Source: an uncultured delta proteobacterium
Lineage (GTDB): Bacteria > Desulfobacterota > Syntrophia > Syntrophales > Smithellaceae
Length of the DNA: 64,000 nt
Reading direction: 5' to 3'
Assembly (NCBI GenBank): GCA_963753975.1
Contig: CAVWEH010000001.1
Coordinates: forward strand, 96,001 to 160,000
In this document: piece by piece, positions 18,100 through 64,000 of the stretch
Layout: each line of letters begins with the position of its first letter
Position numbering within the stretch: the first letter of the stretch is position 1
Translations under genes and position numbers: made by a program
Notes under the pieces: model-generated
The model's input: the letters and a program-made list of their open reading frames with translations, nothing else
The model's database searches: none
Told to the model about the DNA's origin: nothing

Positions 18100-18140
18100 C
18101 TTAATAATTTAACATTTAATATTTTTTATATATTTTACGA

Positions 18141-25480: not shown

Positions 25481-25520
25481 CACAAAATAGAATTTAGCGG
25501 AGGAAAAGGTAAAGGCAGAG

Positions 25521-39005: not shown

Positions 39006-39047
39006 CGTATTGCTCCTTCCTTATTCTTAACCGGTCATTTACATCAA

Positions 39048-40355: not shown

Positions 40356-40491
40356 AGATACCTCCAGCTTTTAATTAAGTGACATTACCGGATAAATTTC
40401 TACTTTTCAATAGTATAATTTTCTGGTTGTTATTTGATAATGAAATATATTATTGTATAACCTAATAAAAAATTAAATTTCAGGAGATATT

Positions 40492-41052: not shown

Positions 41053-41153
41053 ACTCTAAGCTATTTTCACATTTTCATTTTTACGCTACACCATGTTTGC
41101 CGCATCGATAGCAGTTTACTTAAAATTTGCCTAAGATGAAAGAAAGTAAGCAT

Positions 41154-42497: not shown

Positions 42498-42558
42498 GAA
42501 AGCTCAATAGAAGACAACTGCTGGTTAAATAATAGGGAAATAACCACTGGAGGATAAC

Positions 42559-44019: not shown

Positions 44020-44022
44020 TGA

Positions 44023-44703: not shown

Positions 44704-45527
44704 CACTGACTCTTTTTGGATAAGAAAAAGGCATCGACAACATAGAAGACAATTTTAGGGAACGATCGTCATGATAGCCGTTCAGGCCTATTCTCATTTT
44801 GTCATGACCTTCTTGAGGTTGCGCTTTGTAAGTTCCCAGAATTCTGTCCCACCACGGAAAACTAAAACCATAGTTGCTGTTTGTCTCCCGCGCAATCACG
44901 GAATGATGCACCCGGTGCATATCCGGTGTCACCAAAACCATCCTGATAATGCGGTCAACGGATAGAGGGATTCTGACATTACCGTGATTGAACATCGCTG
45001 CGCCGTTCAGCATAATTTCGAAGATCAGGACGGATAGAGGCGGAGCGCCGATTACCGCCACAGCGGCAAACTTAATCAGCAGCGATAATATTATTTCCAG
45101 AGGATGGAAACGCACTGCCGTGGTCACGTCAATATCCTGGTCTGTGTGGTGCACCATATGGACACGCCAGAATAAAGGTACAACGTGGAACATCCTGTGC
45201 TGAAGGTAAATGACAAAATCAAGCACCAATACACCGGTGATCAGCGCCGGCAACGGCGCTATCTGATAGTAATTTAGTAATCCCCAGCCTCTTTGTGCGC
45301 AGATAAAAGCGATTCCAACAGGAAATAGCGGAAAAATTAAACGCAATAGAACGACATCGATTATCTGCATTCCCAGATTGCTGATCCAGCGCTTCGTCTT
45401 GGATTTTAAGCAGCATTCGCCGCGGCGCAATTTTCTCGCTAAGCGCCACAGCAGAAAATATTGCGGCAAAAAACCCCAGGCGCACTAATGTTTCAGGCGA
45501 AATAAAATTCGAAGCTGCATCTATCAT
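44693..45527 (-). CDS. Sterol desaturase / fatty-acid hydroxylase family protein (one +1 frameshift at about 45404-45410)
   Basis: HRMFH, HMVHH, RFHPLE, HRVHH, NYG His boxes; the N-terminal SEKIAPRR lies in the adjacent frame. Confidence 0.88.
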
Positions 45528-45546
45528 GGGGAGGCATTTTCCGCCA

Positions 45547-46652
45547 TCATTTTTTAGGAGAGAATAATTTCAAATATTTTCCGTAGCCTTCTTTTTCCAG
45601 ATCCTCTTTGGGAACAAAACGCAGAGCCGCGGAATTCATGCAATAGCGTAAACCTGTCGGAGGCGGGCCATCCGGAAAAACATGACCTAAATGATAATCG
45701 GCTTCTTTGCTTCTCACTTCGGTGCGCGTGGTAAAAAAGCCCCGATCTTCTTTCTCGACAATATTTCCGGGCTCCAGCGGTTTGGTAAAACTGGGCCAGC
45801 CGGTGCCGGAATCAAATTTATCCAAGGAACTGAATAAGCGGTTCACCGGACACAATATCCACATATATGCCTTCTCTTTTGTTATCGTCATATTCATTTT
45901 TAAAAGGCGGTTCGGTGCCGTTTTTCTGCGTAACTTCATATTGTATTTTGGTGAGTTTTTTCCTCAGGGTCGCATCATCCGGTTTAATGAATTTTCCCTG
46001 GCCGGGAAGCTCGAGGCCTGTCTCATTTCCCCATAATTTTTTTACGGTTTGATCACGGCCGGAACCGATAACGGTAGTAATTATAACGCACGGGATTTTT
46101 GGTATGATAATTCTGATGATATTCTTCTGCCGGATAAAATTTAGTCAATTTAATTAAATCCGTGACGACCGGTTTCCCGAGTTTGCCTGATTTTTCCAGA
46201 GCCTGTTTTGATTTTTCGGCAATCTGCTTTTGCTCATCGTCCTGATAAAATATGGCGCTGCGGTATTGAGGACCTCGGTCGACAAATTGTCCGCCTCCGT
46301 CCGTTGGATCAATATGGTGCCAGAAGTAATTTAAAAGTTGTTCATAGGTGATTACCTGGGGATCATAATAAACCTGCACGGCTTCAATGTAACCCATCTC
46401 CGCATACGTTTCATAGGTCGGATTTTCCCCTTTCCCTCCGGCATAACCGGATACTACTTTTATTACACCGGGAACCTTTTCAAAATCAGACTCCACGCAC
46501 CAAAAACAACCCCCGGCCAGCGTGGCAATATTTTCAGATGTTATTTCATTTTTTTTTGTCATTTTTGATTTTCCCTCCGTTTGCTCGGTATTACCGCTTT
46601 GACAACCTAATATAAAACTGAACATTATTATATACATAAGTAACTTTTTCAT
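45547..46652 (-). CDS. msrAB: Bifunctional methionine sulfoxide reductase MsrA/MsrB lipoprotein (two +1 frameshifts near 46067 and 45838)
   Basis: Lipobox [18 protein letters not shown]; intermediate frame reads GSGRDQ...[14 protein letters not shown]...VDIVSGEP; then [23 protein letters not shown]. Confidence 0.92.
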
Positions 46653-46834
46653 TTTTGCCTCTCCTTTTAAGGAAATTAAATGCCAATATTAAAATTGTAA
46701 CGATGATCCGGCGATTGTCAAACACGCTTATACAATAATTAAATTAAGTACACAGGGAGTAGATAATTTGATTGAATAATGAAGCGGGAAAATAGTATAA
46801 AACTTGACACTGCCGGTACTACCAAGGAGCTTAT

Positions 46835-47557
46835 ATGGCTTCGGAAGCTTTCGCTGGGAAAAAGAAAAATAATTTGTGGCGGCCGATTATATTCATCGTC
46901 TTGCTTATGGCAGCAATTATCCTGCTTAGGCTTTGGGGAGTGGGAGAAAAGCTTACCGATCTTCGTGCCTGGATTTCCAGCCTTGGCTCCTGGGGGCCGT
47001 TAGTTTTCGTATTGATTTATATCATTGCTGTTGTCCTGGCTCTACCCGGTTCCGCCATAACCATTGCCGGAGGAGCGCTTTTCGGATCAGTTTGGGGTGT
47101 CGTACTGGTCAGCATCGCCTCGACAATAGGAGCAAGCATCGCCTTTTTAATTTCCCGTTATCTGGCGAGAGACTTTATTGTGCGTAAATTTTCGCAAAAT
47201 GAAAAATTCAACAAGTTGGATCATCTGACGAAGGAACATGGCGCAATAATTGTAGCAATAACGCGCCTGGTGCCTCTTTTTCCTTTTAATTTTCTTAATT
47301 ACGGTTTTGGCCTTACCGGTGTGCGTTTCTGGACATACGTTTTTTGGTCGTGGCTGTGCATGCTGCCCGGCACTGTTTTGTACGTAGTCGGCACGGATGC
47401 AATCATTAGTGGTTTGGCAGAGGGGAAGATTCCCTGGCTCTTGGTTTTAGTGCTTTTGCTTGCCGCAATTATCCTGGCTTTTCTTGTCTATTTGGCCAGA
47501 AGGAAGCTGTCTGCTGGAAAAGAAAAATATTCCGGCAATAATGATAAAAGTAAATAA
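46835..47557 (+). CDS. TVP38/TMEM64 (DedA-like) membrane protein
   Basis: LPGS..T..GG.LFG, AFLISRYL, TRLVPLFPFNFLNY.FGLT. Confidence 0.92.
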   Translation: MASEAFAGKKKNNLWRPIIFIVLLMAAIILLRLWGVGEKLTDLRAWISSLGSWGPLVFVLIYIIAVVLALPGSAITIAGGALFGSVWGVVLVSIASTIGASIAFLISRYLARDFIVRKFSQNEKFNKLDHLTKEHGAIIVAITRLVPLFPFNFLNYGFGLTGVRFWTYVFWSWLCMLPGTVLYVVGTDAIISGLAEGKIPWLLVLVLLLAAIILAFLVYLARRKLSAGKEKYSGNNDKSK

Positions 47558-52367: not shown

Positions 52368-52625
52368 ATGATAAAACTAAAAAAGCGTTTACTCCAGGGC
52401 GAGGCTCTTCTTAAAAGGGCAGATGAGCTTGGAGTCTCACAACATGGCCTGTGTACAGAAAAACTCGGCAATATTAATGAAGCAATTCTCCAGCAACGAG
52501 TAATTGAAGCAGAACGACAACAAAGAGAACATAGATTATGGCTAATTGCTGTTATTTCAGCGATTGCTTCTGCCTTTAGCGCTCTTGCTGCTTGGTTTGC
52601 CGTTTTTTCTAAATGCGGTTCTTGA
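52368..52625 (+). CDS. Hypothetical protein with C-terminal TM helix
   Basis: 85-aa ORF, AAGGGGA upstream. Confidence 0.65.
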   Translation: MIKLKKRLLQGEALLKRADELGVSQHGLCTEKLGNINEAILQQRVIEAERQQREHRLWLIAVISAIASAFSALAAWFAVFSKCGS

Positions 52626-52637
52626 GAGGTGAGCCCA

Positions 52638-52958
52638 ATGAACTATCTGTATTTATTTTTATCAGTTGCTTTTAACGTGGCATCTTATCTGGTTTATAAA
52701 AGCATTGCTCAAAAACAACATGATTTTAGCTGGCAGGTCTTTTTTATCTTTGGCTTGATCCTCGGTGCCATCAATGTTTATTTGTTCATCAAAGCGCTCC
52801 AGAGTATAAATTTAAGCATTGCCTATCCAATATTTTCCGGCGCTTGTCTGGCTTTAATGATGATTTTGTCTCACTTTATTTTTGGAGAAAAGATAAGCGG
52901 CCTTAATATTCTCGGCACGGTTGTTATTTTTGTGGGGATTGTTTTGTTGTCTTACTAA
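52638..52958 (+). CDS. SMR/DMT-family small transporter
   Basis: Four TM helices, LSIAYP, FGEKIS...G. Confidence 0.85.
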   Translation: MNYLYLFLSVAFNVASYLVYKSIAQKQHDFSWQVFFIFGLILGAINVYLFIKALQSINLSIAYPIFSGACLALMMILSHFIFGEKISGLNILGTVVIFVGIVLLSY

Positions 52959-53090
52959 TTCTCATACCAATTCGCTTTCTTTGGCTAACTTTGTTGGCAT
53001 CGTCGTCGGCTTCCTCAACGTATGTACAATACGTCTCCGGCGCCTCCTCCTTGCCGCCTCGTTATCCTTTGAAATCGAAATGGTATTGCA

Positions 53091-53684
53091 TCAATCTCCA
53101 CTAGACGTAGTCGGATTACTGCCGCTCCAGTATTTGATAATATTTTTTCTGTGATTGAATAAAATAAGTAGAAATGTTGCGAGAGCGCCGGATATTGCAA
53201 TTAATCTCCAATGCGCGGAATGGGCCTCTCCTAAGGCCAAAACAAAAACCATGAAAAATGAAGCAATAAAAGTAATCCGGCCGATCCCGTAGAGAACGAC
53301 CCAGATTGCCGCGGCAAGGAGAGCCGCCCACGGCGCGATAAGGGCTGTAAAACCTAAATAGTTAGCTACACCTTTACCGCCGCGAAAACCATGAAAGCAA
53401 GGGAAGCTATTTCCCAAAACAAGAAAAAAGCCAGCCCAGGGGAGCAAATGCGTTTTTAAAAAATAGCTCGCTATAACCGCGACCGCCAGAGCCCGGCCGA
53501 TATCCAATAAAAAAACAACCATCGCCCAGATAAATCCTGCCTGGCGGTAAACGTTTGTGGTTCCCGCGTTGCCGCTGAAGCTCAGGCGAGGGTCTTCTTT
53601 ACCGGTTAGTTTAAAAAAAATAATAGCGAAATTTATAGAACCGGCAAGATAAGCAAAAAGATAAATTAAAAATGTTTTTCCCAT
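53091..53684 (-). CDS. plsY: PlsY-family glycerol-3-phosphate acyltransferase
   Basis: AYLAGSI, SGNAGTTNV.R, F.GGKGVA, HRKNI. Confidence 0.85.
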   Translation of the reverse strand: MGKTFLIYLFAYLAGSINFAIIFFKLTGKEDPRLSFSGNAGTTNVYRQAGFIWAMVVFLLDIGRALAVAVIASYFLKTHLLPWAGFFLVLGNSFPCFHGFRGGKGVANYLGFTALIAPWAALLAAAIWVVLYGIGRITFIASFFMVFVLALGEAHSAHWRLIAISGALATFLLILFNHRKNIIKYWSGSNPTTSSGD

Positions 53685-53687
53685 TGG

Positions 53688-54554
53688 TTAAATTTCTGCC
53701 TTAATCCAATCCGGCGGATGCAGGCGGCCCTGAGTTACGTCCCTCATTTTAATGCCGCTAATGATTTCATAAATAACACCATTTAAATCATAAATCCAGG
53801 CATCAAATATTAGCGGCTCGTGATTAATATCCACCGGCACAATCCGGCCAAGATAACTGCCTTTCTTTTTTGTCTTTTGATAAATAACTCTTCTTTCAAA
53901 ACCTGTGGGAAAGGGGACAATGCCGTTGAAGCGTTGTCCCCAAACACAAGCCGCATGCATTGCCGCATCCAGTGGAAACGGCGAACCAAGCAAATTTTCA
54001 TCGGCCTCGTAATTCCCGCCGGAAAGATAAGCCAAAGCGCCCTCCGGTGAAACTGCTAAATCACCGGTGATGTTTTGATAAGCCGTTCCGAAAGGCACTA
54101 GTTCACGGTAAATCGTGGCCGCAGGTACGCTGATGCATTTTCCATTGAGCTTTTCCACAATCCGAAAAGGAGATGCAGGGCAGGGGGAGGTATCGGCAGT
54201 GGCAAATTCCACACGGGCATGTTCGAGGGCGCGGCTGATTGCGCTTTTTTTTGATTTTATCGAAGTTAAAAGCACGGCGGTAATATTACCATCACCGGCA
54301 TCTTCTATATCGACAAATATCTCTAAGCGCTTTGTCTCCGGGGGAATGATTAAAAAGCGGGGAAAGCGCGCCTTGAACAACCAGTTGATACTCATCTGCG
54401 GGAAATTAAGCTGAACAACATTAGCCAAAGCGATTAATGTTTCCACCGCGGGCAGAATCACCTTTCCTTCGAAATAGTGATCGCGCAAATATGGAGATAT
54501 CTCAATTGCCGAAGTATAGCGGGTTTTTTTATTTATTTGGGGAACGATGTCCAT
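53688..54554 (-). CDS. Stand-alone polyketide-synthase-type (double hot-dog) dehydratase
   Basis: PYLRDHYFEGKVILPAV (HxxxGxxxxP), FGTAYQ, PLDAAMH. Confidence 0.82.
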   Translation of the reverse strand: MDIVPQINKKTRYTSAIEISPYLRDHYFEGKVILPAVETLIALANVVQLNFPQMSINWLFKARFPRFLIIPPETKRLEIFVDIEDAGDGNITAVLLTSIKSKKSAISRALEHARVEFATADTSPCPASPFRIVEKLNGKCISVPAATIYRELVPFGTAYQNITGDLAVSPEGALAYLSGGNYEADENLLGSPFPLDAAMHAACVWGQRFNGIVPFPTGFERRVIYQKTKKKGSYLGRIVPVDINHEPLIFDAWIYDLNGVIYEIISGIKMRDVTQGRLHPPDWIKAEI

Positions 54555-55012
54555 AGCTGAACCGTTTTAGGATCAACGGCCACGGGTGTGCCCGTCAAAT
54601 TTAAGGCGCAGTGTTTGGTAAAGCCGATACAGATCAGATGTCCCTTTTCCGCGTGGGTGATTACGTAATCGAACTGCAAACGTACCCGCTCCAAATTTAC
54701 CGGCCGTGTGTGAATATACATCAAATCATCATAATACAAAGGCTGATAAAAACTGATGCCCAAATCGAAAATCGGATAAACAAAGCCGCTGGCCTCAATT
54801 TCTTTGTAAGGGTAGGCAAGATCGCGCATCAACGAGGTCCGGCCGAATTCAAAATAACGCAGGTAATTGGAATGATAAACCACTTCCGAGCGATCGGTAT
54901 CAGCGTATAAAGTCCGGTTTTGGGAACGGTGCCAGACAAAGCCGGACGTCCGATCACGCACATACTTTTCATCGTTATTATGAATTTCCGGTTTAAATGG
55001 TTTGGGCCTCAT
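54533..55012 (-). CDS. 4HBT-family acyl-CoA/ACP thioesterase
   Basis: YADTD...VVYHSNYLRYFEFGR. Confidence 0.9.
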   Translation of the reverse strand: MRPKPFKPEIHNNDEKYVRDRTSGFVWHRSQNRTLYADTDRSEVVYHSNYLRYFEFGRTSLMRDLAYPYKEIEASGFVYPIFDLGISFYQPLYYDDLMYIHTRPVNLERVRLQFDYVITHAEKGHLICIGFTKHCALNLTGTPVAVDPKTVQLWTSFPK

Positions 55013-55013
55013 T

Positions 55014-56279
55014 TTATACTCCCCTGAAAATTACACAGCAATTTGTTCCGCCAAATCCGAAGGCGTTGGAAAGAGCAATTTCGTATTTTTGTTTGCGCGC
55101 GGCATTCGGCACAACATCAATATCGGCAAGCTCCGGATCGGGAAGATGATTAATCGTGGGCAGGATGATGCCCTTTCTCATTCCTTCAATGGTCAACGCG
55201 GCCTCAATAGCAGCCGTTGCTCCCAGAGTATGTCCTAATTGAGATTTATTCGAAGACACGGGAATTTTTTCTATTTTTTTGCCGAAAACATCCCGCAGGC
55301 ATTTTATTTCCGTTTGATCTCCTTTGGGGGTGGAAGTGCCGTGGGCGTTGATATATTGAATATCTTGCGGCTTTAAACCCGCATCTTCAATTGTTTCCCT
55401 CAGCGCTCGTATAATTGTCACAGCGTTAGGGCTGGTGTAATGATGCGCATCCGATGTCCACCCGATACCCAAAACTTCCGCTTTGGGTGTGAGTCCGTAA
55501 ACTTTAATTAATTCTTCCGCTGCGAGAACTATAACGCCTGCGCCTTCAGAAAGAACAAAGCCTTTGCGGTCGATACTAAAAGGACGGGATGCCTGGGCAT
55601 GATCAGCATAGGCGCGATCGTCAGGATGAACTTTGATCGTGGCGTTCATATTGGCAAAGCCGTGAATCAGTTCCGGTAAAATCGGCGCATCAGCGCCGCC
55701 CGCCAGAACAAAATCGCAATCACCGTCCCGAATCATTCTTGCGCCGATGCCGATGGCGTGGTTACCGGAAGCGCAGGCGCCCTGCGGTGAAAAAATAGGG
55801 CCGGTAAATTTTAACAGCATTCCGGCTTTGCCCGAAGGCAGATTCGCGCATAAATTAGGCAGCAAATAGGGACTGACCCGGAGCGGTCCCCGATGTTCCA
55901 AATCGTGCATGGCAACACGAAAGGCGTCCGATCCGTTCAGGGCTGAACCGATAAGGCAAGCCATCCGGGGGGCAATCCGCTCATCAATGGTAATCCCTGA
56001 GTTTTCGAGCGCCTCCTTACAAACAGCCATGGTTAGAATTACAAAAGCGGCATTCCAGTTATAAACTTCTTTAGCATCGGTAAAATCAAGTTCCAGCGGA
56101 TACCAATCTGGAATTTCTCCGACTATGTCGCAAGCCGATTCTACTTTACAGCGCGTCACCTTCCGAAAACCGGCTTCACCCTTGATAGCCCTTTTCCATG
56201 TTTTCTCAAAAGTGGCCCCCAGCGGGGTAGCGGCGCCGTAACCGACAACAAAAACTTTTCTATTCTTAGGGGCTTTCAT
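55014..56279 (-). CDS. FabF-type beta-ketoacyl-ACP synthase
   Basis: GACASG, INAHGTST, LGHTLG, NAFGFGG; start reassigned to ATG at 56279. Confidence 0.95.
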   Translation of the reverse strand: MKAPKNRKVFVVGYGAATPLGATFEKTWKRAIKGEAGFRKVTRCKVESACDIVGEIPDWYPLELDFTDAKEVYNWNAAFVILTMAVCKEALENSGITIDERIAPRMACLIGSALNGSDAFRVAMHDLEHRGPLRVSPYLLPNLCANLPSGKAGMLLKFTGPIFSPQGACASGNHAIGIGARMIRDGDCDFVLAGGADAPILPELIHGFANMNATIKVHPDDRAYADHAQASRPFSIDRKGFVLSEGAGVIVLAAEELIKVYGLTPKAEVLGIGWTSDAHHYTSPNAVTIIRALRETIEDAGLKPQDIQYINAHGTSTPKGDQTEIKCLRDVFGKKIEKIPVSSNKSQLGHTLGATAAIEAALTIEGMRKGIILPTINHLPDPELADIDVVPNAARKQKYEIALSNAFGFGGTNCCVIFRGV

Positions 56280-56318
56280 ATTACGATAATTATCCTTTAT
56301 TTGTGAAACTCCAATTCT

Positions 56319-56616
56319 AATGAAACTCAAATATTATCCCGTTACGGGATGTCGCGTCTTTGAAAATAGCCTTCGGCTCCTTACAGAGGTGCTCCACAAA
56401 CGCAGTGAAGTAATATCTGTAAGTTGTAATGAGACTAAAACTTCAAAAGCAAATAACCTAAAGGTCACTATAGGCGCATTGAAGTTTTTTAGCCGAATTA
56501 TCCAATAGCCGGTGGCTATTGGAAATTATCCCGCGCGCGCAGCTTAGCGGGCGACAACAACCCCGCTAAGCGGAGGGTATAATACCCAAAAGCTTGATTT
56601 GGGTTTTATACCCGTG
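56319..56616 (+). repeat. Modular palindromic intergenic repeat, long copy with five hairpins
   Basis: Stems at 56336-56350, 56437-56488, 56501-56523, 56542-56571, 56575-56613; homologous blocks to 51634-51781. Confidence 0.75.
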
Positions 56617-56617
56617 A

Positions 56618-57865
56618 TCATAGCCTGCGCAAAACCAGACAGGAATTGCATCCGCCGAAACCAAACGCGTTTTTCAATACAAATTCCTGACTCAACTTTC
56701 TCGCGCCTTCGGCGACACAGTCAAGAACAATTCCCGGATCGGGAACATAGTTTATCGTGGGAAGCAAAGTTTCTTTGATCATTCCTTCCATCGCCAGAAT
56801 CGCTTCAACGGCGGAAGATGCGCCCATGGCGTGTCCCATCTGCGATTTATTTGCCGATACCGGAGGAACATTTTTTCCGAAAATGTTGGAGAGGGCATCA
56901 GCTTCCACTTTATCGCCCACTTTTGTCGAAGTGGCATGTGCATTAATGGCGTCTATGTCAGCGGGCCGTAATCCGGCATTGGCAATCGACTCTTTGATGC
57001 ATCTTTGCACTGTTTCCAGTTTGGGCGAAACAAAATGGCTCGCATCGGAAGTCATTGACCAGCCGGCCAATTCTATTTTCGGTTTTAACCCATGCGCTTT
57101 CGCAAATTCTTCAGTTGCCAGAATAATGCAGCCGGCGCCTTCGGAGACGACAAACCCTCTTCTATTCACGGAAAAAGGGCGGCTGGTTTTTTCCGGTGGC
57201 TCTTCCGGCTGTCCCTCTTTCGGGCGGTAAGCGCCGTTCATCGTGGCAAATCCCGCGACAATCGGTTCCACCAAAGGAAAGTCAACGGCGCCGCCGATAA
57301 CCACATCAGCCATACCCCGTTGCAAGAGCATCTCGCCCACGATAAGCGAGGTGATTCCGGTGGCGCACGCCGTTATAGTCGAACAGATTGGGCCTGTTGC
57401 TCCCGTCAGGATAGAAACCTTGCCTCCGACCATATTAATGCACGAATTGGGATTGGTAAAGGGGTGAGGCATCTTGCCTTCTTGAACCATCAGGCGATCA
57501 GCCTGGAGCACAGCGTCCAGGCCACCGACTGCCGTGCTGAAAGTAACCGCCACCCGTGGCGCGATATCCGCGGAAATTACAATTCCGCTTTTTTCCAGAG
57601 CGCGATGCACAACAAGAAGAGCGTATTTAAAGATCGGTGATGTCCAGTGCGCCATTTCCCGCGGCTGTAAAAAAGGATACGGCCGTAAGCCCACCTCCGC
57701 TACTTCACCGGCAACACGCACAGGAAAATCGGCGGTAAGCGGAAATCTGGTCAACTTTCCTATTCCGCAATCTCCTGCGGCCGCGCGCTGCCACTCCGTA
57801 TCCAAATCCGTTCCTAAGGGAGAAACGGCATCATAACCCAATATTAGAGCTTTCTTTGAACTCAT
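56618..57865 (-). CDS. FabF-type beta-ketoacyl-ACP synthase
   Basis: TACATG, INAHATST, MGHAMG, NAFGFGG. Confidence 0.95.
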   Translation of the reverse strand: MSSKKALILGYDAVSPLGTDLDTEWQRAAAGDCGIGKLTRFPLTADFPVRVAGEVAEVGLRPYPFLQPREMAHWTSPIFKYALLVVHRALEKSGIVISADIAPRVAVTFSTAVGGLDAVLQADRLMVQEGKMPHPFTNPNSCINMVGGKVSILTGATGPICSTITACATGITSLIVGEMLLQRGMADVVIGGAVDFPLVEPIVAGFATMNGAYRPKEGQPEEPPEKTSRPFSVNRRGFVVSEGAGCIILATEEFAKAHGLKPKIELAGWSMTSDASHFVSPKLETVQRCIKESIANAGLRPADIDAINAHATSTKVGDKVEADALSNIFGKNVPPVSANKSQMGHAMGASSAVEAILAMEGMIKETLLPTINYVPDPGIVLDCVAEGARKLSQEFVLKNAFGFGGCNSCLVLRRL

Positions 57866-57961
57866 AACTTATTTCCTAATAAATATAAAAAAATCCTCTC
57901 CTTAAAGAAGGGGGGAATGATTGTTGATCACAGACGTGTCTATATCAAAGATTATTGGGTA

Positions 57962-58957
57962 TTACCACGGAATAAAACGATACAGCTTGGCGAACATTTC
58001 ATAAACTTCGATCCAGTTTTGTAAATCTTTAGTCGATCGCAAGTGTTCCCGCTTATTGACCATTATCCAGCTCATGTGTGCCGCACCGTCTTTGCAGGTC
58101 GAGCAATCGCGCGTTGCCGATGTGCAGCAGCGGTGAACTGTTTGTAAATCGGAAGCCCAGCGGAAAAAATGAATCAGACGACGGGTTGGCGGCTGTCTGT
58201 GATCCAGAGATTCGGTAACAGACGGGCATTCTTTCCAGCCAAAACGACGTCCCATCATTTTTCCGGTGGTAATAACTTCATGATAGTATTTGCTGGAAAT
58301 TACACTTTGCGGGTATTTATCCAGCATTTCATCCATTTCGGAGCATAAATCTTTGAGTTCGCCTTCGCGCCAGGAAAATCCGTCAACACCTTCATCATTC
58401 GAGAGAAGCTGGAGATGTACTTTTAAGCCGACATCCGCAATTCGTTTGATCACCGGTTCGATTTTTCCTAACTGCTTTGGTGTTATTGTGTAAAGATAGT
58501 ACGTGTAGGGGTCTCCGGCATAATTTTTACTGGAGAGAGCAAAAGTATCGCGTCCGCGCAGAACCTTTTCATCGGCACTTCCGCCCCACAGGGAAATCCC
58601 CACCATCAGGTCGGGAAACCTTTCCCGGGGAACTTTAATCAGGCCGTTGGTGGCGCAATAGGTAGGCAGACGCTTGTAAAAAGCTTCAACGCGATCCATG
58701 CAGAGAGTCGGCTCACCCCCGATCAGAATCGCCAGATTAACGCCGCGCTCTTTTTCTTTATCAATAAAATTTTCCCATTTCCATATGTCCATTTCCTCCG
58801 TCACTTGATGCTCGCCGGAAGAAAAGAAAAAACACCCCTTGCAGCGCAAATTGCAGCGGTTGGTTACATCATATATGGAACTGCGGATGTTAAGATTGGC
58901 AATCCGTTTGTAACGGGCTTGCCAATTCTTATCCAGTAGGGAACTAACAGTTTTCAT
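57962..58957 (-). CDS. Radical SAM protein
   Basis: CNLRCKGC, GGEPTL, C-terminal CCTSATRDCSTC. Confidence 0.9.
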   Translation of the reverse strand: MKTVSSLLDKNWQARYKRIANLNIRSSIYDVTNRCNLRCKGCFFFSSGEHQVTEEMDIWKWENFIDKEKERGVNLAILIGGEPTLCMDRVEAFYKRLPTYCATNGLIKVPRERFPDLMVGISLWGGSADEKVLRGRDTFALSSKNYAGDPYTYYLYTITPKQLGKIEPVIKRIADVGLKVHLQLLSNDEGVDGFSWREGELKDLCSEMDEMLDKYPQSVISSKYYHEVITTGKMMGRRFGWKECPSVTESLDHRQPPTRRLIHFFRWASDLQTVHRCCTSATRDCSTCKDGAAHMSWIMVNKREHLRSTKDLQNWIEVYEMFAKLYRFIPW

Positions 58958-59005
58958 TAACTTTTGTCCTTCTTCAGAAAAATAATATAATGCCCGGCCT
59001 CTTTC

Positions 59006-60094
59006 TTAATTTACAGTTACCTGTGGCGGCGCTACCTGTTCGGTGCAAAGATTTTCCCCCTTTTCATAGTTCATAACCCAGACCGCCAAATAGGTGTCGA
59101 CATAATCAAGCCAGGACTTAAACGAAGCCAGGCTATTGACGTGGCGGTATAGGCGCGCTGTTACGACCGCGGAACCGGCGGCGTAATGACGGCAATCGGC
59201 GCAATCTGTATCCGGCACACAACAGGCAACCGACCTGTCCCAATTAAGGTCGGTCCTGTATTGCCGGAAAGATCTGCCCAGGCCGATATCCTGGGAAGGA
59301 TTCTGGCGGGGATATGAGCAGCCGTAAAGACCGTGCAGACCCTTTTTATGAGTGTGCGCCACGGCATTGTAGACTGAAAAAAGGATATTCTGCGGATATT
59401 CATTCAATAGCGCTAGCATCATTTGCTTTGTTCGTTCGAGAGATTCATCATCATGCCGCAGAGGACCTGCATAACCGACCGGAGAAGAAAAAACATTAAA
59501 AGTTAGTTTACAACCGTGGGCAACAAGATCTTTGGCGACATCATTTACTTCATCGATATTTTCCCGCGTAAAGGTGTAGACAAATACTGCGCGCGGATCA
59601 TTTTTATAATTTTCAATCTGTTTTTTTAAAAGATTTTTCGCTTTTCTGATGCGCAGGCTGGTTTCGTCATTACCCCAGACGGAAATATGTATTTTGTACC
59701 CTACCGATTCCGGGATTTTTTTAAAACCATTGGTAGCAATACTGCCTAGCGGCATTTCCTGATAGCACACATCCAGCAGTTCCGGCACTAAAGACGGCTC
59801 GGCTCCCGCCAAAACTACATAGGTAATACCGCGAGTTTTTTCAGTCTGCATTAGTTTACGCCATGCTTTGGCGTCGCCAATTTCCCGGGCAAACTGCTTA
59901 TCCCCTTCAAAATAATAACAGCCGTCACAACGGATATTACAGCGGTTAGACATGTCATAGGTTGATTCCCGCAGAAAAAAATATTTCCGGACTTTTTCCC
60001 AACGCGCCTTTATCTCCGGCTGGGCTAAAAGTTCAGAAAATTTCGGTTTGGCAGATTCCAGAGAATCTTTATTGTTGAAAGTAGTCATAGACAA
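59006..60094 (-). CDS. Radical SAM protein, paralogue of 57962-58957
   Basis: CNIRCDGC, GAEPSL, C-terminal CCVPDTDCADC. Confidence 0.9.
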   Translation of the reverse strand: MSMTTFNNKDSLESAKPKFSELLAQPEIKARWEKVRKYFFLRESTYDMSNRCNIRCDGCYYFEGDKQFAREIGDAKAWRKLMQTEKTRGITYVVLAGAEPSLVPELLDVCYQEMPLGSIATNGFKKIPESVGYKIHISVWGNDETSLRIRKAKNLLKKQIENYKNDPRAVFVYTFTRENIDEVNDVAKDLVAHGCKLTFNVFSSPVGYAGPLRHDDESLERTKQMMLALLNEYPQNILFSVYNAVAHTHKKGLHGLYGCSYPRQNPSQDIGLGRSFRQYRTDLNWDRSVACCVPDTDCADCRHYAAGSAVVTARLYRHVNSLASFKSWLDYVDTYLAVWVMNYEKGENLCTEQVAPPQVTVN

Positions 60095-60104
60095 TTTCTA
60101 TCGA

Positions 60105-60377
60105 TTAACTTTTCGCGGTAAGTTTTTCTTTGATATAATCGGCTATCAGGCGAATAGTTTTCAATTTTGGATAATCGTCTTCATCAATCACAATTTTGTA
60201 TTCATCCTGCAGTACTAAGGCAATGGTGGCTAAATCCATACTATCAATGCCCAGTTCATCCACCAGGTCCATATCAGCGTTGAATGTTTCTGCCGTAACA
60301 TCTTCCAGCTTAAGTTCTCCAATAATGACTTCGGCTACATGACGTATAATGCCTTTTATATCGAGATTTTCAGGCAT
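60105..60377 (-). CDS. Acyl carrier protein
   Basis: ELGIDSMD phosphopantetheine site; acidic 90 aa. Confidence 0.93.
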   Translation of the reverse strand: MPENLDIKGIIRHVAEVIIGELKLEDVTAETFNADMDLVDELGIDSMDLATIALVLQDEYKIVIDEDDYPKLKTIRLIADYIKEKLTAKS

Positions 60378-60379
60378 TC

Positions 60380-60778
60380 TTATCCTCCTTCTGCACTTTT
60401 TTTATCTTCTTTTATTTTCTGCGCAATTATTAAACCGCTGCATACGATATTTTCTTTGTTTGCCACTTTAAAAGAAAACAATGTTTCCTCGCCCAATTCT
60501 TCACCGGAGATCGTCAGCGACAAATTTTCTCCTGGTTTTACCGGCTGAGTAAATCTCACTCTTCTCAGCGTGGAAAGTCTAACTTGCTCGTTTCTTTTTT
60601 CGGTATGGCGGATAATTGCCTGTTCGGTCATATGAACCAGAGCTATTCCCGGAAGAATCGGCTCATTGGGAAAATGTCCCACAAACCAAGGCGAATCAGC
60701 CGGCACATATGCTAACGCTTCGATCTCATTTGGTTTATTGGATTTAACCTCTCCCAGCAAATTCCATCGACCTTTCAA
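60380..60778 (-). CDS. FabA/FabZ-like hot-dog dehydratase
   Basis: WFVGHFPNEPILPGI, VRFTQPVKPG. Confidence 0.88.
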   Translation of the reverse strand: MKGRWNLLGEVKSNKPNEIEALAYVPADSPWFVGHFPNEPILPGIALVHMTEQAIIRHTEKRNEQVRLSTLRRVRFTQPVKPGENLSLTISGEELGEETLFSFKVANKENIVCSGLIIAQKIKEDKKSAEGG

Positions 60779-60890
60779 GAGAATAGACCTCGTTTAGCGC
60801 CGTGCAAAATTTAATTTATTTTGAGAAATATTTCTTTATATCACTAATTATTTTTTAATCAAAATTTTTTATAAAATCAATGATTAATTT

Positions 60891-60925
60891 ACCCCGTTAG
60901 AAAGTAGAAGACTTTCTAACGGGGT
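60891..60925. repeat. Perfect 15-bp inverted repeat (REP-like)
   Basis: ACCCCGTTAGAAAGT-AGAAG-ACTTTCTAACGGGGT. Confidence 0.7.
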
Positions 60926-60945
60926 TTGCTTTCGGAAAAATATTT

Positions 60946-61758
60946 TTATAAATTATTATTTTCTATGATCATCACTTCTTTGTTTATTAAAACGGAAAGC
61001 GGCACAACTCTAAAACCTCGGGAAATAATTCCGGCCAGAAGAATTTCTATCTCCGCTAAAAAAACGGCATTATCTTCCTTGCTTCGCGCCGGCACGTCGT
61101 GGAGCAGTATAATATCACCGGCTTTTACTTTTTTCAGTATTTTTTGGCCGATGTTTTTTATAAAAAAATTGCCGGCATCAAAGGCGCGGCAACCGAACGT
61201 CACACAATACATTTCCAGTTTGTCAAGAATCGACGAGAGTTTGGGATTGACGATGCCCACCGGCGGCCGGAAAGCCCGCATTTTTATCCCCATTTTTCGC
61301 AAAGCTTCTTGAGTCGCGAAGATTTCCTGGTAAAGAGTATCAAAAGATCTAAGCATCAAAAAGGGATAATGGTGATATGAATGGTTGCCGACAGAATGAC
61401 CGCGGGAAATTATGTCCTTAATGATATCAGGATGGAGAACGGCATTGACACCGGAGATAAAAAAAGTCGCCTGTATTGAATATCTATCAAGCAGATTGAG
61501 AATCTGTATCGTCATCGGTTTTGTAGGGCCATCATCAAAAGTAAGCGCAACCATATTTTCCCGCATGTTGCCGCGGCTGATCACGGGCAGGAAAAAGTTG
61601 GTTTGTGGGAAAAAAGAAGCAAAAAAACACAGAAGAATATAAAAAAAAGCGACGGCCGCCGCCATCAAGGGGTTGACAAAATAAACTAACACGGCGACAG
61701 CCAAAAGAATTATTCCTGTAGCTTCGGCCGGATTCAAGAATGGCAATCTCTTTTTCAT
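60946..61758 (-). CDS. Membrane-anchored polysaccharide deacetylase (NodB/CE4)
   Basis: Two TM helices, ALTFDDGP, GNHSYHH, FRPPVG, ILLHD. Confidence 0.92.
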   Translation of the reverse strand: MKKRLPFLNPAEATGIILLAVAVLVYFVNPLMAAAVAFFYILLCFFASFFPQTNFFLPVISRGNMRENMVALTFDDGPTKPMTIQILNLLDRYSIQATFFISGVNAVLHPDIIKDIISRGHSVGNHSYHHYPFLMLRSFDTLYQEIFATQEALRKMGIKMRAFRPPVGIVNPKLSSILDKLEMYCVTFGCRAFDAGNFFIKNIGQKILKKVKAGDIILLHDVPARSKEDNAVFLAEIEILLAGIISRGFRVVPLSVLINKEVMIIENNNL

Positions 61759-61782
61759 TGATAAACCTTTAAGCAGTTGTCT

Positions 61783-63132
61783 TCATTGAATCAGGTGCTC
61801 CCACAAAGGTCCTGTTAATCCCCGTTCATAGAGTTTGGGTAAAACATGGGTCGCCTTGGCTTCACCGGCGTCGACAAGCCAATTCAAACGACCGTCGGCA
61901 TAAGTTTTCACCGTTTGCATAATTTCCCGGCCGGATATGTGTGGTGATCTATAAAATACGGGTTGCAGGAGACTTTGAGAGGCGGTGATTTGACCTTCCT
62001 TCAGGGCGATATCATACAACGCGGTATGAGGATAGATACGGATGCCGCAAAAAAAGAAAAAGACCGATTTCCCCAGTTCATTCAATCCATTTAATGTTTT
62101 TTGCAGGGTCTGATAGGTTTCACCCGGACCGCCCAGAAGGAAATAATGGGCGATGTGCAGGTCAGCCGAGAGTGCCTGACTATGAGCTCTAAATACATCG
62201 GCGGCGGCAAATGGTTTGCTCAAATTGATGAGCATTAAATCGGACAAAGATTCTGTCCCAAATTCCACATGGGTCAACCCGGCATCCGCCAAACGCTTAT
62301 AATAATCGGCCGGAGGAACGGTGGGTGCAAAAAACCCCCCCCAGGGAATGGATACGCGGGCATCAATAAAGGCCTGAGCAATTTGTCTGCTGTGATCGTG
62401 GCTCGCATTAAAAGCCGAATCAGTAATAAAAATGTATTTGGCGCCGGCATCCTGCAATTTGCGTGCTCTCTGGGCTATTTCCTGCGGCGGGAAAAATCGC
62501 ATCCGGCTGCCTTCGATGTGAGGATAAATGCAGTAGCTGCAGCGAAAAGGGCACCCTCTTTTTGTTTGCAGGTTGAGCATTCCACCGCAGGATAAATAAA
62601 ATTTTGTATGCGAACTTACCGGATTAAAACTTCTATTGATTGGACCATCCCACGGCTCGTAAGTACTGATGGAGGTTTTTTTAGTCACAATGCCGGGAAT
62701 TGATTTTACGTCAGCATTTTTTTGCAGTGCTTCCAAAAGCAGGGGCAATCTTTCGCCCTCGCCGACAATGCCGTAATCTGCATCCAGTGCGTGGATAAAT
62801 TCAACCGGAAAAACGGTGAAACCACTGCCTCCTAAAATCAACTTGGCCTTAGAATTTTTTCTGATTTGACGCACCAAATTCTGATATTCTGCAAGAAAGC
62901 CGCGGCTGTTTATTATATCCAGGTTATCTATATTTCTGATTGATACTCCGACAAAATCGGGTGAAAACTTTCGAATTATCACCCCCAATTCTTCCAGATC
63001 GTTAAATTCATTCAAATCAACAATTTTGGTTTGATAACGTGAATCCAATGAACCGGCGACGTAATCGAGCCCCAGCGGATAAACAGGATACGGAACTCTC
63101 AGAGTGTTTGCCGAGATTAGCAATACTTTCAT
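61783..63132 (-). CDS. Cobalamin-binding radical SAM protein, lipid-biosynthesis (TIGR04072-like) type
   Basis: PYPVYPLGLDYV, SIRNIDN, LGGSGF, QTKRGCPFRCSYC; start reassigned to ATG at 63132. Confidence 0.88.
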   Translation of the reverse strand: MKVLLISANTLRVPYPVYPLGLDYVAGSLDSRYQTKIVDLNEFNDLEELGVIIRKFSPDFVGVSIRNIDNLDIINSRGFLAEYQNLVRQIRKNSKAKLILGGSGFTVFPVEFIHALDADYGIVGEGERLPLLLEALQKNADVKSIPGIVTKKTSISTYEPWDGPINRSFNPVSSHTKFYLSCGGMLNLQTKRGCPFRCSYCIYPHIEGSRMRFFPPQEIAQRARKLQDAGAKYIFITDSAFNASHDHSRQIAQAFIDARVSIPWGGFFAPTVPPADYYKRLADAGLTHVEFGTESLSDLMLINLSKPFAAADVFRAHSQALSADLHIAHYFLLGGPGETYQTLQKTLNGLNELGKSVFFFFCGIRIYPHTALYDIALKEGQITASQSLLQPVFYRSPHISGREIMQTVKTYADGRLNWLVDAGEAKATHVLPKLYERGLTGPLWEHLIQ

Positions 63133-63189
63133 AATAGAGGCAAAATGCAAAAAGCGCTATAAGGTTATTATCTTTGCGTAAGCGAAAGC

Positions 63190-63462
63190 TTAAGCCTTTG
63201 GACGCTGATTCGCTAAAATGTGCGTGGCCAATGCACGCACCGATGCAAAAACCTTGGCGCCCAGTTCTTTGCTCTGGATTTTAACGCCATAGTTTTTTTC
63301 AATCATCATTACTAACTCCAGCACATCAATGGAATCAATTCCCGTATCGCCGCCCACAAGCGGAGCATCGTCCTTGATATCCTCCGGTTTAACATCCATC
63401 AATCCCAGTGTTTGAATAATTTTGACTTTAAGTTCAGTGACTAATTTTTCAATTTGGTTCAT
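63190..63462 (-). CDS. Acyl carrier protein
   Basis: GIDSIDVLEL; GAGGTG RBS. Confidence 0.93.
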   Translation of the reverse strand: MNQIEKLVTELKVKIIQTLGLMDVKPEDIKDDAPLVGGDTGIDSIDVLELVMMIEKNYGVKIQSKELGAKVFASVRALATHILANQRPKA

Positions 63463-63505
63463 TTAACACCTCAATGTTATTTGATTTAGCGCCGGTGAGA
63501 GCGCT

Positions 63506-63925
63506 TTAGTTTTTTATTGGGCCGGCTTCTGTTTTTTCCCGCGGCGAAGGTTTAATGATTTTAGCATCATCACCAAGTATTCTTTCTAAAATGATTCGTG
63601 CCGTCCAGCTCGAAAGAGCCTTCATGTATTTAGGGCCGGCAAGATACATACCGTACATAAAAGTAAGCCACGAAATGCCGTAAGTCACCGGTATGCCGAT
63701 AAAACCAATTAAAGGTTCGTTGAGCCTTGCGGCAATCACGCCAAGCACGGGAACTGCCGGTAAACCTATAATATAACTAAAAGCAATCAATAAAATACCG
63801 ATGTATATACGAGTCGATAGTTTTTCTTTAAAAACCCTCAGGTCGGCGTGTTCAGCGATGGCTTTGCGGCAATATTCTTTTTGGGCAAAATACAAGGCTG
63901 TTTTTTTTATTATGTTCACAATCAT
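63506..63925 (-). CDS. Hypothetical membrane protein
   Basis: 139-aa ORF with two or three hydrophobic helices, co-oriented with the cluster. Confidence 0.65.
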   Translation of the reverse strand: MIVNIIKKTALYFAQKEYCRKAIAEHADLRVFKEKLSTRIYIGILLIAFSYIIGLPAVPVLGVIAARLNEPLIGFIGIPVTYGISWLTFMYGMYLAGPKYMKALSSWTARIILERILGDDAKIIKPSPREKTEAGPIKN

Positions 63926-64000
63926 TCCTGAAAAATAGGCGTATTTTTTTAAAAGTTTGTGATAATAGCTTTAAGTATAGAATAATTTCAAGGAAAATTT

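Follow-up and report, generated by a model that had tools for sequence, protein, structure and literature searches.

Thirteen genes on the minus strand of a 64,000-nucleotide stretch of DNA from an uncultured delta proteobacterium of the family Smithellaceae (assembly GCA_963753975.1, contig CAVWEH010000001.1, positions 96,001 to 160,000; hereafter the window, meaning the whole stretch analysed) make up an operon which we are inclined, with modest confidence, to read as the Smithellaceae version of the ladderane-type lipid system, in which fatty acid synthesis of type II (FAS II) is combined with radical S-adenosylmethionine enzymes (rSAMs). It would comprise two modules and load its product through a thioesterase (TE), a fatty-acid kinase and the acyltransferase PlsY. 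Clusters of the ladderane type have been described since 2009 without a known product (PMC2649909), clusters that antiSMASH labels "ladderane" in Desulfobacterota and further non-anammox phyla are reported to have an unknown function (PMC9902471), and a 2026 review still lists the ring-installing ladderane enzymes as unknown (PMC13459092), as far as the accessible text of these three sources goes. An earlier note on this DNA had held that the deltaproteobacterial products are not established, and the same portions of the three papers indeed name none for the non-anammox clusters. Our literature searches (supplements excluded) likewise returned no product for non-anammox carriers and no link of PlsY or a fatty-acid kinase to such clusters. 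As far as we found, the new elements are the order-wide pattern of PlsX, PlsY, PlsB and the kinase, the separate clade of the cluster PlsY, and the layout of the system over three loci.

Gene content and conservation of the operon

The studied genome comprises 2.43 Mb in 6 contigs and is 95% complete. The thirteen co-oriented genes listed in the earlier note correspond to thirteen open reading frames (ORFs), all on the minus strand and running from window position 63925 to 53091, with labels backed by Pfam and NCBIfam:

63506..63925, minus strand: g01, membrane protein of 139 residues, first gene of the operon; no Pfam family
63190..63462, minus strand: g02, ACP1, the acyl carrier protein (ACP) of module 1; PF00550 (1.3e-9), NF006617 (72.3 bits, cut-off 70)
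61783..63150, minus strand: g03, B12-binding rSAM (B12-rSAM) of family TIGR04072; PF02310 and PF04055, TIGR04072 (389.6 bits, cut-off 360)
60946..61758, minus strand: g04, membrane-anchored deacetylase of the CE4 (NodB) type; PF01522 (96.7 bits)
60380..60778, minus strand: g05, FabZ/ApeI-like single-hotdog dehydratase; PF07977 (37.6 bits), PF22818 (31.5 bits, cut-off 28.5)
60105..60377, minus strand: g06, ACP2, the carrier of module 2; PF00550 (4e-9)
59006..60094, minus strand: g07, radical SAM A (rSAM_A), a candidate of the twitch/SPASM class; conserved cysteines and fold matches
57962..58957, minus strand: g08, radical SAM B (rSAM_B), paralogue of g07; 27.7% identity to it over 321 residues
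56618..57865, minus strand: g09, KS_A, FabF-like ketosynthase (KS); PF00109 and PF02801, TIGR03150 (325.2 bits, cut-off 493.75)
55014..56330, minus strand: g10, KS_B, FabF-like KS; TIGR03150 (381.4 bits, cut-off 493.75)
54533..55012, minus strand: g11, TE of the YbgC/FadM hotdog type; PF13279, PF03061, TIGR00051 (79.3 bits, cut-off 68.7)
53688..54554, minus strand: g12, free-standing double-hotdog dehydratase (DH) of the polyketide synthase (PKS) type, PS-DH; PF14765 (26.1 bits, cut-off 23.7)
53091..53684, minus strand: g13, divergent acyltransferase of the PlsY family; PF02660 (124.8 bits, cut-off 24.1)

Two of the start codons probably lie inside the ORFs as listed, that of the B12-rSAM at M7 (position 63132), because an identical database protein has 449 residues, and that of KS_B at M18 (position 56279), because its orthologues are 421 residues long. 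The intergenic gaps are short except for 287 bp between KS_A and KS_B, and translational coupling links TE, DH and PlsY, whose gaps measure 1, -22 and 3 nt (g11 and g12 overlap by 22 nt). The possibility raised earlier that the cluster continues past the window was not borne out on inspection of the sequence to the right, where a divergent flavin-reductase/rubredoxin gene follows g01, and then a cytochrome c and a P-type ATPase. A convergent SMR/EamA gene stands beyond PlsY at the other end, and the operon therefore starts and ends within the window.

To place the operon among its relatives, one genome per species was scanned with the B12-rSAM, which gave 80 related loci, and gene frequencies were estimated in two draws of genomes, 401 from the phylum and 61 from the order, in which absence from a metagenome-assembled genome (MAG) is not proof of absence. 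Homologues of all thirteen genes stand in the window order in 30 of the 80 loci; 46 loci reach the DH gene, and every one of these has the core of g03 and g05-g12. The rSAM_A and rSAM_B genes (the twin rSAMs) are neighbours in 59 of the 62 loci holding rSAM_A, the remaining three stopping at a contig end. As the same order recurs in the relatives' loci, the arrangement is not due to chance. The loci include MAGs named as Spirochaetota/Leptospirales, Desulfocapsa, Desulfurivibrionaceae and Desulfobacteraceae beside those of Syntrophales, and the twin rSAMs, both KSs and ACP2 are 60-80% identical across Syntrophales, Desulfobulbales, Desulfobacteraceae and Spirochaetota; in the loci outside Syntrophales and in one of family f22 (L135) their identity to the window proteins is 60-78%; ACP2 on its own is 65-98% identical in related loci across phyla. 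In the phylum sample rSAM_A occurs in 31/401 genomes, with its paralogue adjacent in 30 of the 31, and rSAM_B was found in 22/61 genomes of the order. The membrane protein g01 is poorly conserved (4% invariant columns); 62 homologous ORFs (36-78% identity) head the cluster in related loci or lie behind it on the opposite strand, and a hydrophobic stretch spans its residues 36-68.

The operon consists of two modules, the first made of ACP1, the B12-rSAM, CE4 and the FabZ-like dehydratase, and the second of ACP2, the twin rSAMs, KS_A/KS_B, TE, DH and PlsY. TIGR04072 scores above its cut-off in 79/401 genomes of the phylum sample and in two classes, 540-670 and 360-435 bits; the window B12-rSAM falls in the lower class, with only 33-37% identity to the upper one. 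Thirteen neighbourhoods of upper-class TIGR04072 genes (regions of 11.7-16.4 kb) yielded neither rSAM_A nor rSAM_B, yet in one genome (G286) the block of ACP2 and twin rSAMs lies just past an upper-class gene; the operon halves can thus be separated as modules. In relatives from Spirochaetota, Desulfobulbales and elsewhere in Syntrophales, module 1 has two extra genes between ACP1 and the B12-rSAM, one encoding a KS of 711-752 residues fused to a chain-length-factor-like (CLF-like) domain, PF13723, and the other an FAD amine-oxidase/phytoene-dehydrogenase-like protein of 487-488 residues. Fusions also occur elsewhere in the relatives: in Spirochaetota and part of the Syntrophales a SAM methyltransferase is joined to CE4, and in a Spirochaetes locus (L089) a phosphopantetheinyl transferase is joined to the DH, with an equally long copy in Leptospirales (L087).

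The catalytic residues of the chain-building enzymes are conserved. Cys, both His and Lys are conserved in KS_A (53 aligned rows, window protein included) and KS_B (50 rows), so that the intact Cys-His-His triads reported for the two FabF proteins in the earlier note, visible in the translations, are kept throughout. KS_A and KS_B share 41% identity with each other, versus 34% (KS_A) and 34-37% (both) with the housekeeping FabF (C1:47928-49172), which scores 632.7 bits against the TIGR03150 model under whose cut-off both operon KSs fall; the best solved relatives of KS_B are canonical FabFs (2gqd, 1.9e-83). The serine motif DS(I/L)D is conserved in ACP1, and a sequence search of solved structures matched ACP1 (top match 9ls6) and ACP2 only to generic ACPs. 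The single-hotdog dehydratase g05 conserves HFP..P.LPG, and its best solved relatives are the anammox amxFabZ structures 7qv0, 8ayb, 8ayi, 8ayd and 8ayc, all weak matches (E 1e-9 to 1e-8). The N-terminal Asp motif is conserved in TE. In the DH, H26, P35 and D196 are invariant and G30 and H200 nearly so (HxxxGxxxxP, DxxxH/Q); its sequence retrieved nothing meaningful among solved structures, and its AlphaFold2 (AF2) model (pLDDT 91.0) is matched best by Foldseek to the DH domains of MlnB, an MAS-like PKS and CurJ (TM 0.65-0.74). The CE4 protein has a hydrophobic N-terminus (residues 5-53) and conserves the NodB motifs TFDDG, H..H, RPPxG and LxH in 68 aligned rows.

The tie drawn earlier between the B12-rSAM and the family defined from candidate ladderane clusters holds, as g03 passes TIGR04072 over its full length (model positions 1-443), with an N-terminal B12-binding domain (PF02310, 48.5 bits), the radical SAM domain (PF04055, 69.4 bits) and a conserved CPFRCSYC motif. 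Its neighbourhood of ACP, FabZ-like and FabF-like genes is also that of TIGR04072. The next-best families are B12 methyltransferases far below their cut-offs, namely BzaD (152 bits), tryptophan 2-C-methyltransferase (127 bits) and PhpK.

The twin rSAMs are strongly conserved, with 43% invariant columns across phyla, and both have a CxxxCxxC core and a C-terminal CC-x5/6-C-xx-C group. C52, C56 and C59 are invariant in rSAM_A and C291, C298 and C301 nearly so, and C35, C39, C42, C278, C285 and C288 are invariant in rSAM_B. The AF2 model of rSAM_A (pLDDT 91.2) has SuiB, SkfB, anSME, BlsE, viperin, MoaA and GDGT-MAS as nearest folds, all weak matches (TM only 0.40-0.55, identity 13-21%), and no NCBIfam model comes near its cut-off. 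An HpnH-like or Tes-like identity was rejected (20-30 bits versus cut-offs of 300-650). Compared with SuiB, SkfB, anSME, BlsE and the lipid-modifying GDGT-MAS/Tes, the twins share the CxxxCxxC motif and a C-terminal Cys cluster which would suit an auxiliary Fe-S cluster, and the rSAM_A model comes closest in fold to this class; they differ in the low TM and identity and in always forming an adjacent A/B pair behind an ACP. The family is small: of 1.84 billion representatives, 494 reach E<=1e-3, 241 reach 1e-10 and 90 reach 1e-30. A look-up of rSAM_A in the ESM Atlas returned only unnamed radical SAM clusters, and one of 10 distant relatives carries a name (hypothetical protein, Alphaproteobacteria MAG).

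Two repeat families border on the operon genes. The 287-bp gap between KS_A and KS_B (56331-56617) is made of modular dispersed repeats with more than 90 hits in the genome, for which reason a regulatory RNA considered there was rejected; the segment behind PlsY (52959-53090) is one copy of a dispersed repeat with 26 further blastn hits (75-100% identity, the longer ones 80-141 nt). The two share no repeat and represent different families, copies of both also lie in intergenic gaps of the relatives' clusters, and a permissive Rfam search of window positions 52500-64000 gave no match. Both segments draw far more metatranscriptome contigs than the coding parts (depth up to 594); the contigs on g03 and g06-g11 are short, 90-96% alike and from relatives, which is too weak to show expression of this operon, and segments lacking such contigs carry no information. 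The operon is also flanked by oxygen-defence genes in a presumed strict anaerobe, with cytochrome bd oxidase, a rubrerythrin-like protein, MsrA and MsrB on the 37998-47557 side, and a flavin-reductase-rubredoxin fusion, cytochrome c, cytochrome b561 and a second MsrA beyond g01. A gene of the di-iron fatty-acid-hydroxylase family lies at 44693-45469.

PlsY, fatty-acid kinase and the proposed loading route

PlsY enzymes use acyl-phosphate delivered by PlsX or by a fatty-acid kinase, and the distribution of these proteins bears directly on the fate of the cluster product. The operon PlsY is the sole PlsY of the genome by tblastn and Pfam; it passes PF02660 and stays below TIGR00023 (101.8 bits versus a cut-off of 137.2), and it conserves SGNxGxxN, GGKGVA and NHxxN (37 aligned rows, window protein included), which we take to be the functional motifs. 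PlsX (PF02504) was found neither in the 61 order genomes (0/61) nor in the studied genome (0/1), and the control search matched 8 or 9 of 14 named genomes. PlsY occurs in 22/61 order genomes, 21 of which also hold rSAM_B; one genome (G432) has rSAM_B only, one (G445, 89% complete) has PlsY only, and 38 have neither. In 15 of these 21 genomes both genes share a contig and lie 4-18 kb apart. A PlsB-like protein of 876 residues is encoded in the studied genome (NF003441, 494.9 bits, below the cut-off of 610), and such a gene is present in 53/61 order genomes whether or not they have the cluster. The co-occurrence of PlsY and rSAM_B, the failure to find PlsX and the wide presence of the PlsB-like gene indicate that PlsY is private to the cluster: it comes with the cluster and is not the housekeeping enzyme of the order.

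The same conclusion is reached from the sequences of PlsY. All 22 PlsY proteins of the order sample score 105-132 bits, versus 182-199 bits for the best 150 listed from the phylum sample. In a maximum-likelihood tree, 37 cluster PlsY rows and 20 canonical rows are split at a single long branch (support 95/79, recovered in 98% of 200 bootstrap trees); one canonical row (L138) that was kept is an outlier on a very long branch and probably a wrong ORF. The cluster clade covers Syntrophales, Desulfobacteraceae and one Spirochaete, and PlsY lies directly behind the DH in 36 of the 46 loci which reach that gene. The view that the cluster has a PlsY of its own is thus upheld by its being the only copy in the genome, by its co-occurrence with rSAM_B and by its separate clade.

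Conceivably, PlsY might instead be a housekeeping enzyme that merely happens to stand at the operon end, in which case the cluster product would not be a glycerolipid. Its being the only PlsY of the genome would fit, as would five cluster-positive order genomes without a PlsB-like match. We nevertheless consider this very improbable, because the only rSAM_B-negative genome with PlsY among 39 is the 89% complete sister of a cluster-positive genome, PlsX was found in none of the 61 order genomes, a PlsB-like gene is at hand here and in most of the order sample, the cluster PlsY forms a long-branch clade of its own that includes copies from Spirochaetota and Desulfobacteraceae, and genomes of family f37 carry a canonical PlsY together with a second PlsY match.

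Since PlsX was not found, a single fusion of FakA and DegV domains (C5:15702-17426, 574 residues) is the sole candidate source of acyl-phosphate. Its DegV part passes TIGR00762 (146.6 bits versus 99.7), and the FakA and FakB models score below their cut-offs. The fusion occurs in 21/61 order genomes, that is, in 20 of the 22 rSAM_B-positive and in one of the 39 negative ones, and it comes and goes together with rSAM_B within the mixed families f1, f123, f126 and f129. Moreover, it lies 12-20 kb from rSAM_B in three genomes (G429, G440, G439) and directly upstream of the cluster in three loci (L050, L079 and the Spirochaete L089). As TE stands two genes upstream of PlsY, the kinase co-occurs with the cluster and no PlsX was found, a route through TE and FakA-DegV appears likelier than direct loading from ACP. 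Glycerol-3-phosphate loading as suggested in the earlier note can thus be kept as a proposal in so far as it proceeds via PlsY; the direct transfer from ACP is unlikely, since PlsY needs acyl-phosphate and PlsX was not found.

In Firmicutes, FakA/FakB and PlsY incorporate free fatty acids into phospholipid. The kinase domain, the fatty-acid-binding DegV/FakB domain and the PlsY-family enzyme are shared with that route, and no PlsX was found here. Unlike in Firmicutes, the kinase parts are fused, the free acid would come from the TE of the operon itself, and a PlsB-like housekeeping enzyme would operate alongside.

Dispersed loci and comparison with known systems

The operon does not stand alone. 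By tblastn with its proteins, more KS, ACP and B12-rSAM paralogues were located on contigs C5 and C4, and the Smithellaceae system is fragmented over at least three loci. Among 73 ORFs scanned in the window and on its right flank, no SDR-type (short-chain dehydrogenase/reductase) or other ketoreductase (KR) was found, in line with what the earlier note had remarked for the window, and the KR is at C5:441.6-442.3 kb. Those ORFs also yielded no phytoene-dehydrogenase-like gene, aryl starter activation, KS/CLF pair or LolA/MMPL export. The KR, the phytoene-dehydrogenase-like gene and the KS/CLF-like pair are on C5 in this genome, and inside or beside the cluster in relatives. The two C5 loci are as follows:

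C5:1-25 kb: aryl-polyene-like locus with a TAL/HAL-type ammonia-lyase, acyl-AMP ligase, B12-rSAM, B12-binding protein of 409 residues, FakA-DegV, second thioesterase, ACP, three KSs, family 2 glycosyltransferase (GT2), MMPL-methyltransferase fusion, LpxL-like acyltransferase, BtrH-like protein and ABC transporter
C5:441100-447700: SDR ketoreductase (441.6-442.3 kb), LolA-like protein, phytoene-dehydrogenase-like protein, ACP, KS and PlsC-like acyltransferase

At C5:4383-6559, a KS adjoins a protein of 345 residues that can be aligned to the CLF-like half of the KS-CLF fusion seen in relatives, and the ACP of the first C5 locus is 35-40% identical to the ACP1 homologues of related loci; this locus and the operon probably belong to one system. 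The phytoene-dehydrogenase-like protein (C5:443640-445103) has 43% identity to the in-cluster copy of the Spirochaete L089, and its homologues occur in 17 of 22 cluster-positive and none of 39 cluster-negative order genomes, in most families 3-6 kb from rSAM_B. Genes of the C5 loci adjoin the operon in eight related loci (L050, L079, L089, L096, L099, L111, L113, L115).

Two further regions were noted in the same searches. C4:227700-239000 is FAS-like and contains a malonyl-transferase-like acyltransferase (AT), a carboxylase subunit, an acyl-CoA dehydrogenase, KAS III, two SDRs, a FabA-like dehydratase, a KS, a PlsC-like acyltransferase, a phosphopantetheinyl transferase and an FMN reductase. 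A second TIGR04072-like B12-rSAM (C5:272515-273753; 31% identity to g03; 297 bits, below the cut-off) lies away from FAS-like genes and adjoins two proteins without an NCBIfam match.

The system has evident likenesses to aryl-polyene (APE)/flexirubin clusters. Within the operon, ACP1 passes NF006617, g05 passes the ApeI-like PF22818 and TE is of the hotdog (4HBT) kind; in the linked C5 loci there are a KS with a PF13723 CLF-like partner, KR, LolA-like protein, MMPL exporter, glycosyltransferase, acyltransferase of the LPLAT/LpxL type, aromatic ammonia-lyase and AMP ligase. These likenesses lend some weight to a tentative and, in our judgement, rather unlikely reading in which the operon is an arm of an APE-like pathway shared with the C5 loci, the product is a pigment-like or protective envelope lipid exported to the outer membrane instead of a bulk phospholipid, and PlsY with the PlsC-like enzyme builds its glycerol anchor. 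The C5:1-25 kb locus with its TAL/HAL-type lyase, AMP ligase, two KSs, TE, GT2, MMPL-methyltransferase, LpxL-like protein and ABC transporter speaks for it, as does C5:441-448 kb with KR, LolA-like, phytoene-dehydrogenase-like, ACP, KS and PlsC-like genes. Moreover, genes of the C5 type adjoin the operon in L050, L079, L089, L099, L111 and L113, a GT25-like gene and MMPL follow the cluster in Desulfurivibrionaceae (L099), and a GT25-like gene does so in Desulfocapsa (L102) and Desulfobacteraceae (L112). The available description of Kuenenia kuste3335-3352 also lists a glycosyltransferase and a phenylacetyl-CoA ligase (PMC4790861). Set against this, the two KSs of the operon are both predicted to be catalytically intact and resemble elongating FabFs, not a KS/CLF pair, and the operon itself has no aryl-activating enzyme. 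We know of no described APE cluster with three to five radical SAMs, CE4, PlsY and a fatty-acid kinase; B12 or twin rSAMs are, to our knowledge, not described in known APE clusters, and a literature search on this gave only genome-mining surveys. Besides, this alternative overlaps the ladderane-type reading, as the loading route is identical in both.

The closest described counterpart of module 1 is in anammox bacteria. We compared Kuenenia directly only for proteins with solved structures, and Desulfotalea by its description. Anammox Cluster I (KustE3603-3608) is described, in the accessible parts of Rattray 2009, Dietl 2023 and the Granatino 2026 preprint, as amxACP, amxFabZ, amxFabF2, amxFabFmut, a phytoene-dehydrogenase-like protein (PDH) and a B12 radical SAM. 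Module 1 corresponds to this cluster: it has a dedicated ACP, a FabZ-like protein whose nearest solved structures are those of amxFabZ, and a B12-rSAM scoring above the TIGR04072 cut-off, and the relatives in Spirochaetota and other Syntrophales that have KS/CLF-like and PDH-like genes between ACP and B12-rSAM reproduce the Cluster I gene set as described there. The differences are that the window operon lacks KS/CLF and PDH genes, whose homologues are on C5, that its B12-rSAM is lower-scoring (389 bits versus 540-670), that it includes a membrane CE4, that the host is not an anammox bacterium, and that both window KSs keep Cys-His-His, versus the FabF2/FabFmut pair described for anammox bacteria.

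This correspondence invites the question whether true ladderanes, with fused cyclobutane rings as in anammox bacteria, could be the product. We regard this as extremely improbable. Passing a family model named for ladderane candidates and having amxFabZ as best solved relatives are in its favour. In the accessible texts, ladderanes are reported only from anammox bacteria (PMC9902471) and none were found in Desulfotalea psychrophila (PMC2649909); g03 is distant from the high-scoring TIGR04072 class (33-37% identity, as above), and both operon KSs keep an intact triad, with no mutated CLF-like partner of the kind described in the available part of a preprint on the anammox enzymes (bioRxiv 10.64898/2026.05.19.726425).

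Module 2, taken with CE4, finds its likeness in a second Kuenenia locus, kuste3335-3352, for which the accessible text of PMC4790861 gives the SAM-radical genes kuste3342/3343, three FabF paralogues, two ACPs, FabZ, FabG, SAM methylases, a phytoene desaturase, a glycosyltransferase and a phenylacetyl-CoA ligase, and which is described as syntenic with a D. psychrophila locus (DP1853/DP1855 region; PMC2649909, likewise as far as its text is accessible). An adjacent pair of non-B12 rSAMs, FabF paralogues, extra ACPs, FabZ and a CE4-like protein (Kuste3351) are common to these loci and the window operon. SAM methyltransferases, a glycosyltransferase, an aryl/acyl-CoA ligase and a phytoene-desaturase-like gene, all included in the description, are present in the window system over its three loci. 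The core operon of the window is itself carried by Desulfobulbales MAGs (Desulfocapsa, Desulfurivibrionaceae). The listing for kuste3335-3352 differs in that thioesterase, PKS-type DH and PlsY do not appear in it, and the accessible text never uses the term "acyltransferase" (PMC4790861).

For the Kuenenia/Desulfotalea loci, Rattray's proposal was an O2-independent route to polyunsaturated fatty acids or hydrocarbons, and its transfer to the present operon, with the rSAMs and the phytoene-dehydrogenase-like enzyme as desaturases, is in our view quite improbable. D. psychrophila, with the syntenic locus, has polyunsaturated hydrocarbons and no ladderanes according to the part of PMC2649909 concerned; the presence of two dehydratases would suit such a role, as would the cluster-linked phytoene-dehydrogenase-like enzyme, and rSAMs of the twitch class include dehydrogenases such as anSME, one of the fold matches of rSAM_A. 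Against it, those hydrocarbons could stem from another pathway, such as Ole-type head-to-head condensation, on which a literature search found nothing. The proposal would leave the B12-rSAM, CE4, TE and PlsY without a role. Furthermore, Kuste3336 and kuste3607 are reported without CrtI-like activity and with no new fatty acids in E. coli, in the available text of PMC4790861.

Some further features of the window lie outside the operon. A PLP enzyme of Cys/Met metabolism (PF01053; 30529-31813) is spread over two ORFs that overlap on the minus strand, with 177 and 285 residues and profile positions 1-131 and 131-381, possibly owing to a frameshift or an assembly error. Positions 16000-20600 have a low GC content (36-39% versus about 44%) and encode a Dam-type N6-adenine methyltransferase, a DndB-like protein and several family-less ORFs; the segment looks like an acquired DNA-modification/defence islet. 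Two adjacent large paralogues of 757 and 733 residues at 23207-27722 have HEAT/PBS-lyase repeats at the same positions.

Proposed pathway and its significance

Taken as a ladderane-type system, the operon and the C5 loci can be arranged into a tentative pathway. Module 1 probably makes a short ACP1-bound intermediate and modifies it by radical chemistry; going by the nearest characterised relatives of the B12-rSAM, C-methylation is our default guess for the reaction. Module 2 probably elongates the chain on ACP2 with KS_A/KS_B, the KR being supplied by C5:441-448 kb and the other reductive enzymes, such as the enoyl reductase (ER), presumably by housekeeping FAS II. The twin rSAMs would then alter the chain without oxygen, C-H abstraction leading to the formation of C-C or C=C bonds. 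For loading, TE would free the acyl chain from ACP, FakA-DegV would phosphorylate it, and PlsY would acylate glycerol-3-phosphate to 1-acyl-glycerol-3-phosphate. As this would run parallel to the PlsB-like housekeeping route, the special chain would enter a dedicated (lyso)phosphatidic acid pool, from which the PlsC-like, glycosyltransferase, CE4, LolA-like and MMPL proteins may finish and move the lipid.

A bolder version of this pathway, speculative and unlikely as we see it, is that the twin rSAMs join or cyclise carrier-bound chains by O2-free C-C formation, and that a ring-bearing or cross-linked acid of a class not yet seen passes through the TE-kinase-PlsY bypass into a glycerophospholipid pool of its own. 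For example, the product of ACP1, modified by the B12-rSAM, might be coupled to the chain on ACP2, following the ligation logic of "type b" considered for ladderanes. If true, an undescribed membrane lipid would be common to syntrophs, sulfate reducers and anaerobic spirochaetes, and the chemistry behind it would be one otherwise known only for archaeal isoprenoid lipids.

Several observations caution against the ladderane-type reading and its loading route. Members of the cluster family have no known product, intermediate or enzyme activity, and methylation by the B12-rSAM is an analogy only, the matches to characterised methylases lying far below cut-offs. No new fatty acid appeared when Kuenenia candidate genes were expressed heterologously, and kuste3342/3343 went undetected, according to the accessible text of PMC4790861. 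Ten of the 46 loci reaching the DH have no PlsY behind it; in five (L040, L066, L067, L097, L108) it was probably lost to the locus edge, judging from the locus lengths, and the Desulfocapsa-type loci and L100 are truly without it. Genomes of family f22 have the twin rSAMs with only a canonical-class PlsY. Eight order genomes have no PlsB-like match, and in the five of them that are cluster-positive, PlsY could be the main route. The FakA-DegV kinase is missing from two cluster-positive genomes (G452, 100% complete, and G454), and in the studied genome its gene lies between GT2 and the second thioesterase in the aryl-polyene-like locus and may serve that pathway. Finally, the co-occurrence counts ignore shared ancestry.

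The pathway enzymes characterised so far are only ACP, FabZ and the FabF pair. The PlsY clade, the fused kinase and the thioesterase should bind or turn over the finished acid and thus offer handles that avoid the radical enzymes; the DegV domain could serve to fish out the product. For heterologous expression, the three-locus list shows that KR, the phytoene-dehydrogenase-like protein and KS/CLF are needed beyond the operon. Carriers are common in methanogenic and sulfidic habitats and amount to about a third of the sampled Syntrophales and 31/401 genomes of the phylum sample. The cluster lipid could be of importance to the bioenergetics of membranes at the thermodynamic limit, and also to biomarker geochemistry.

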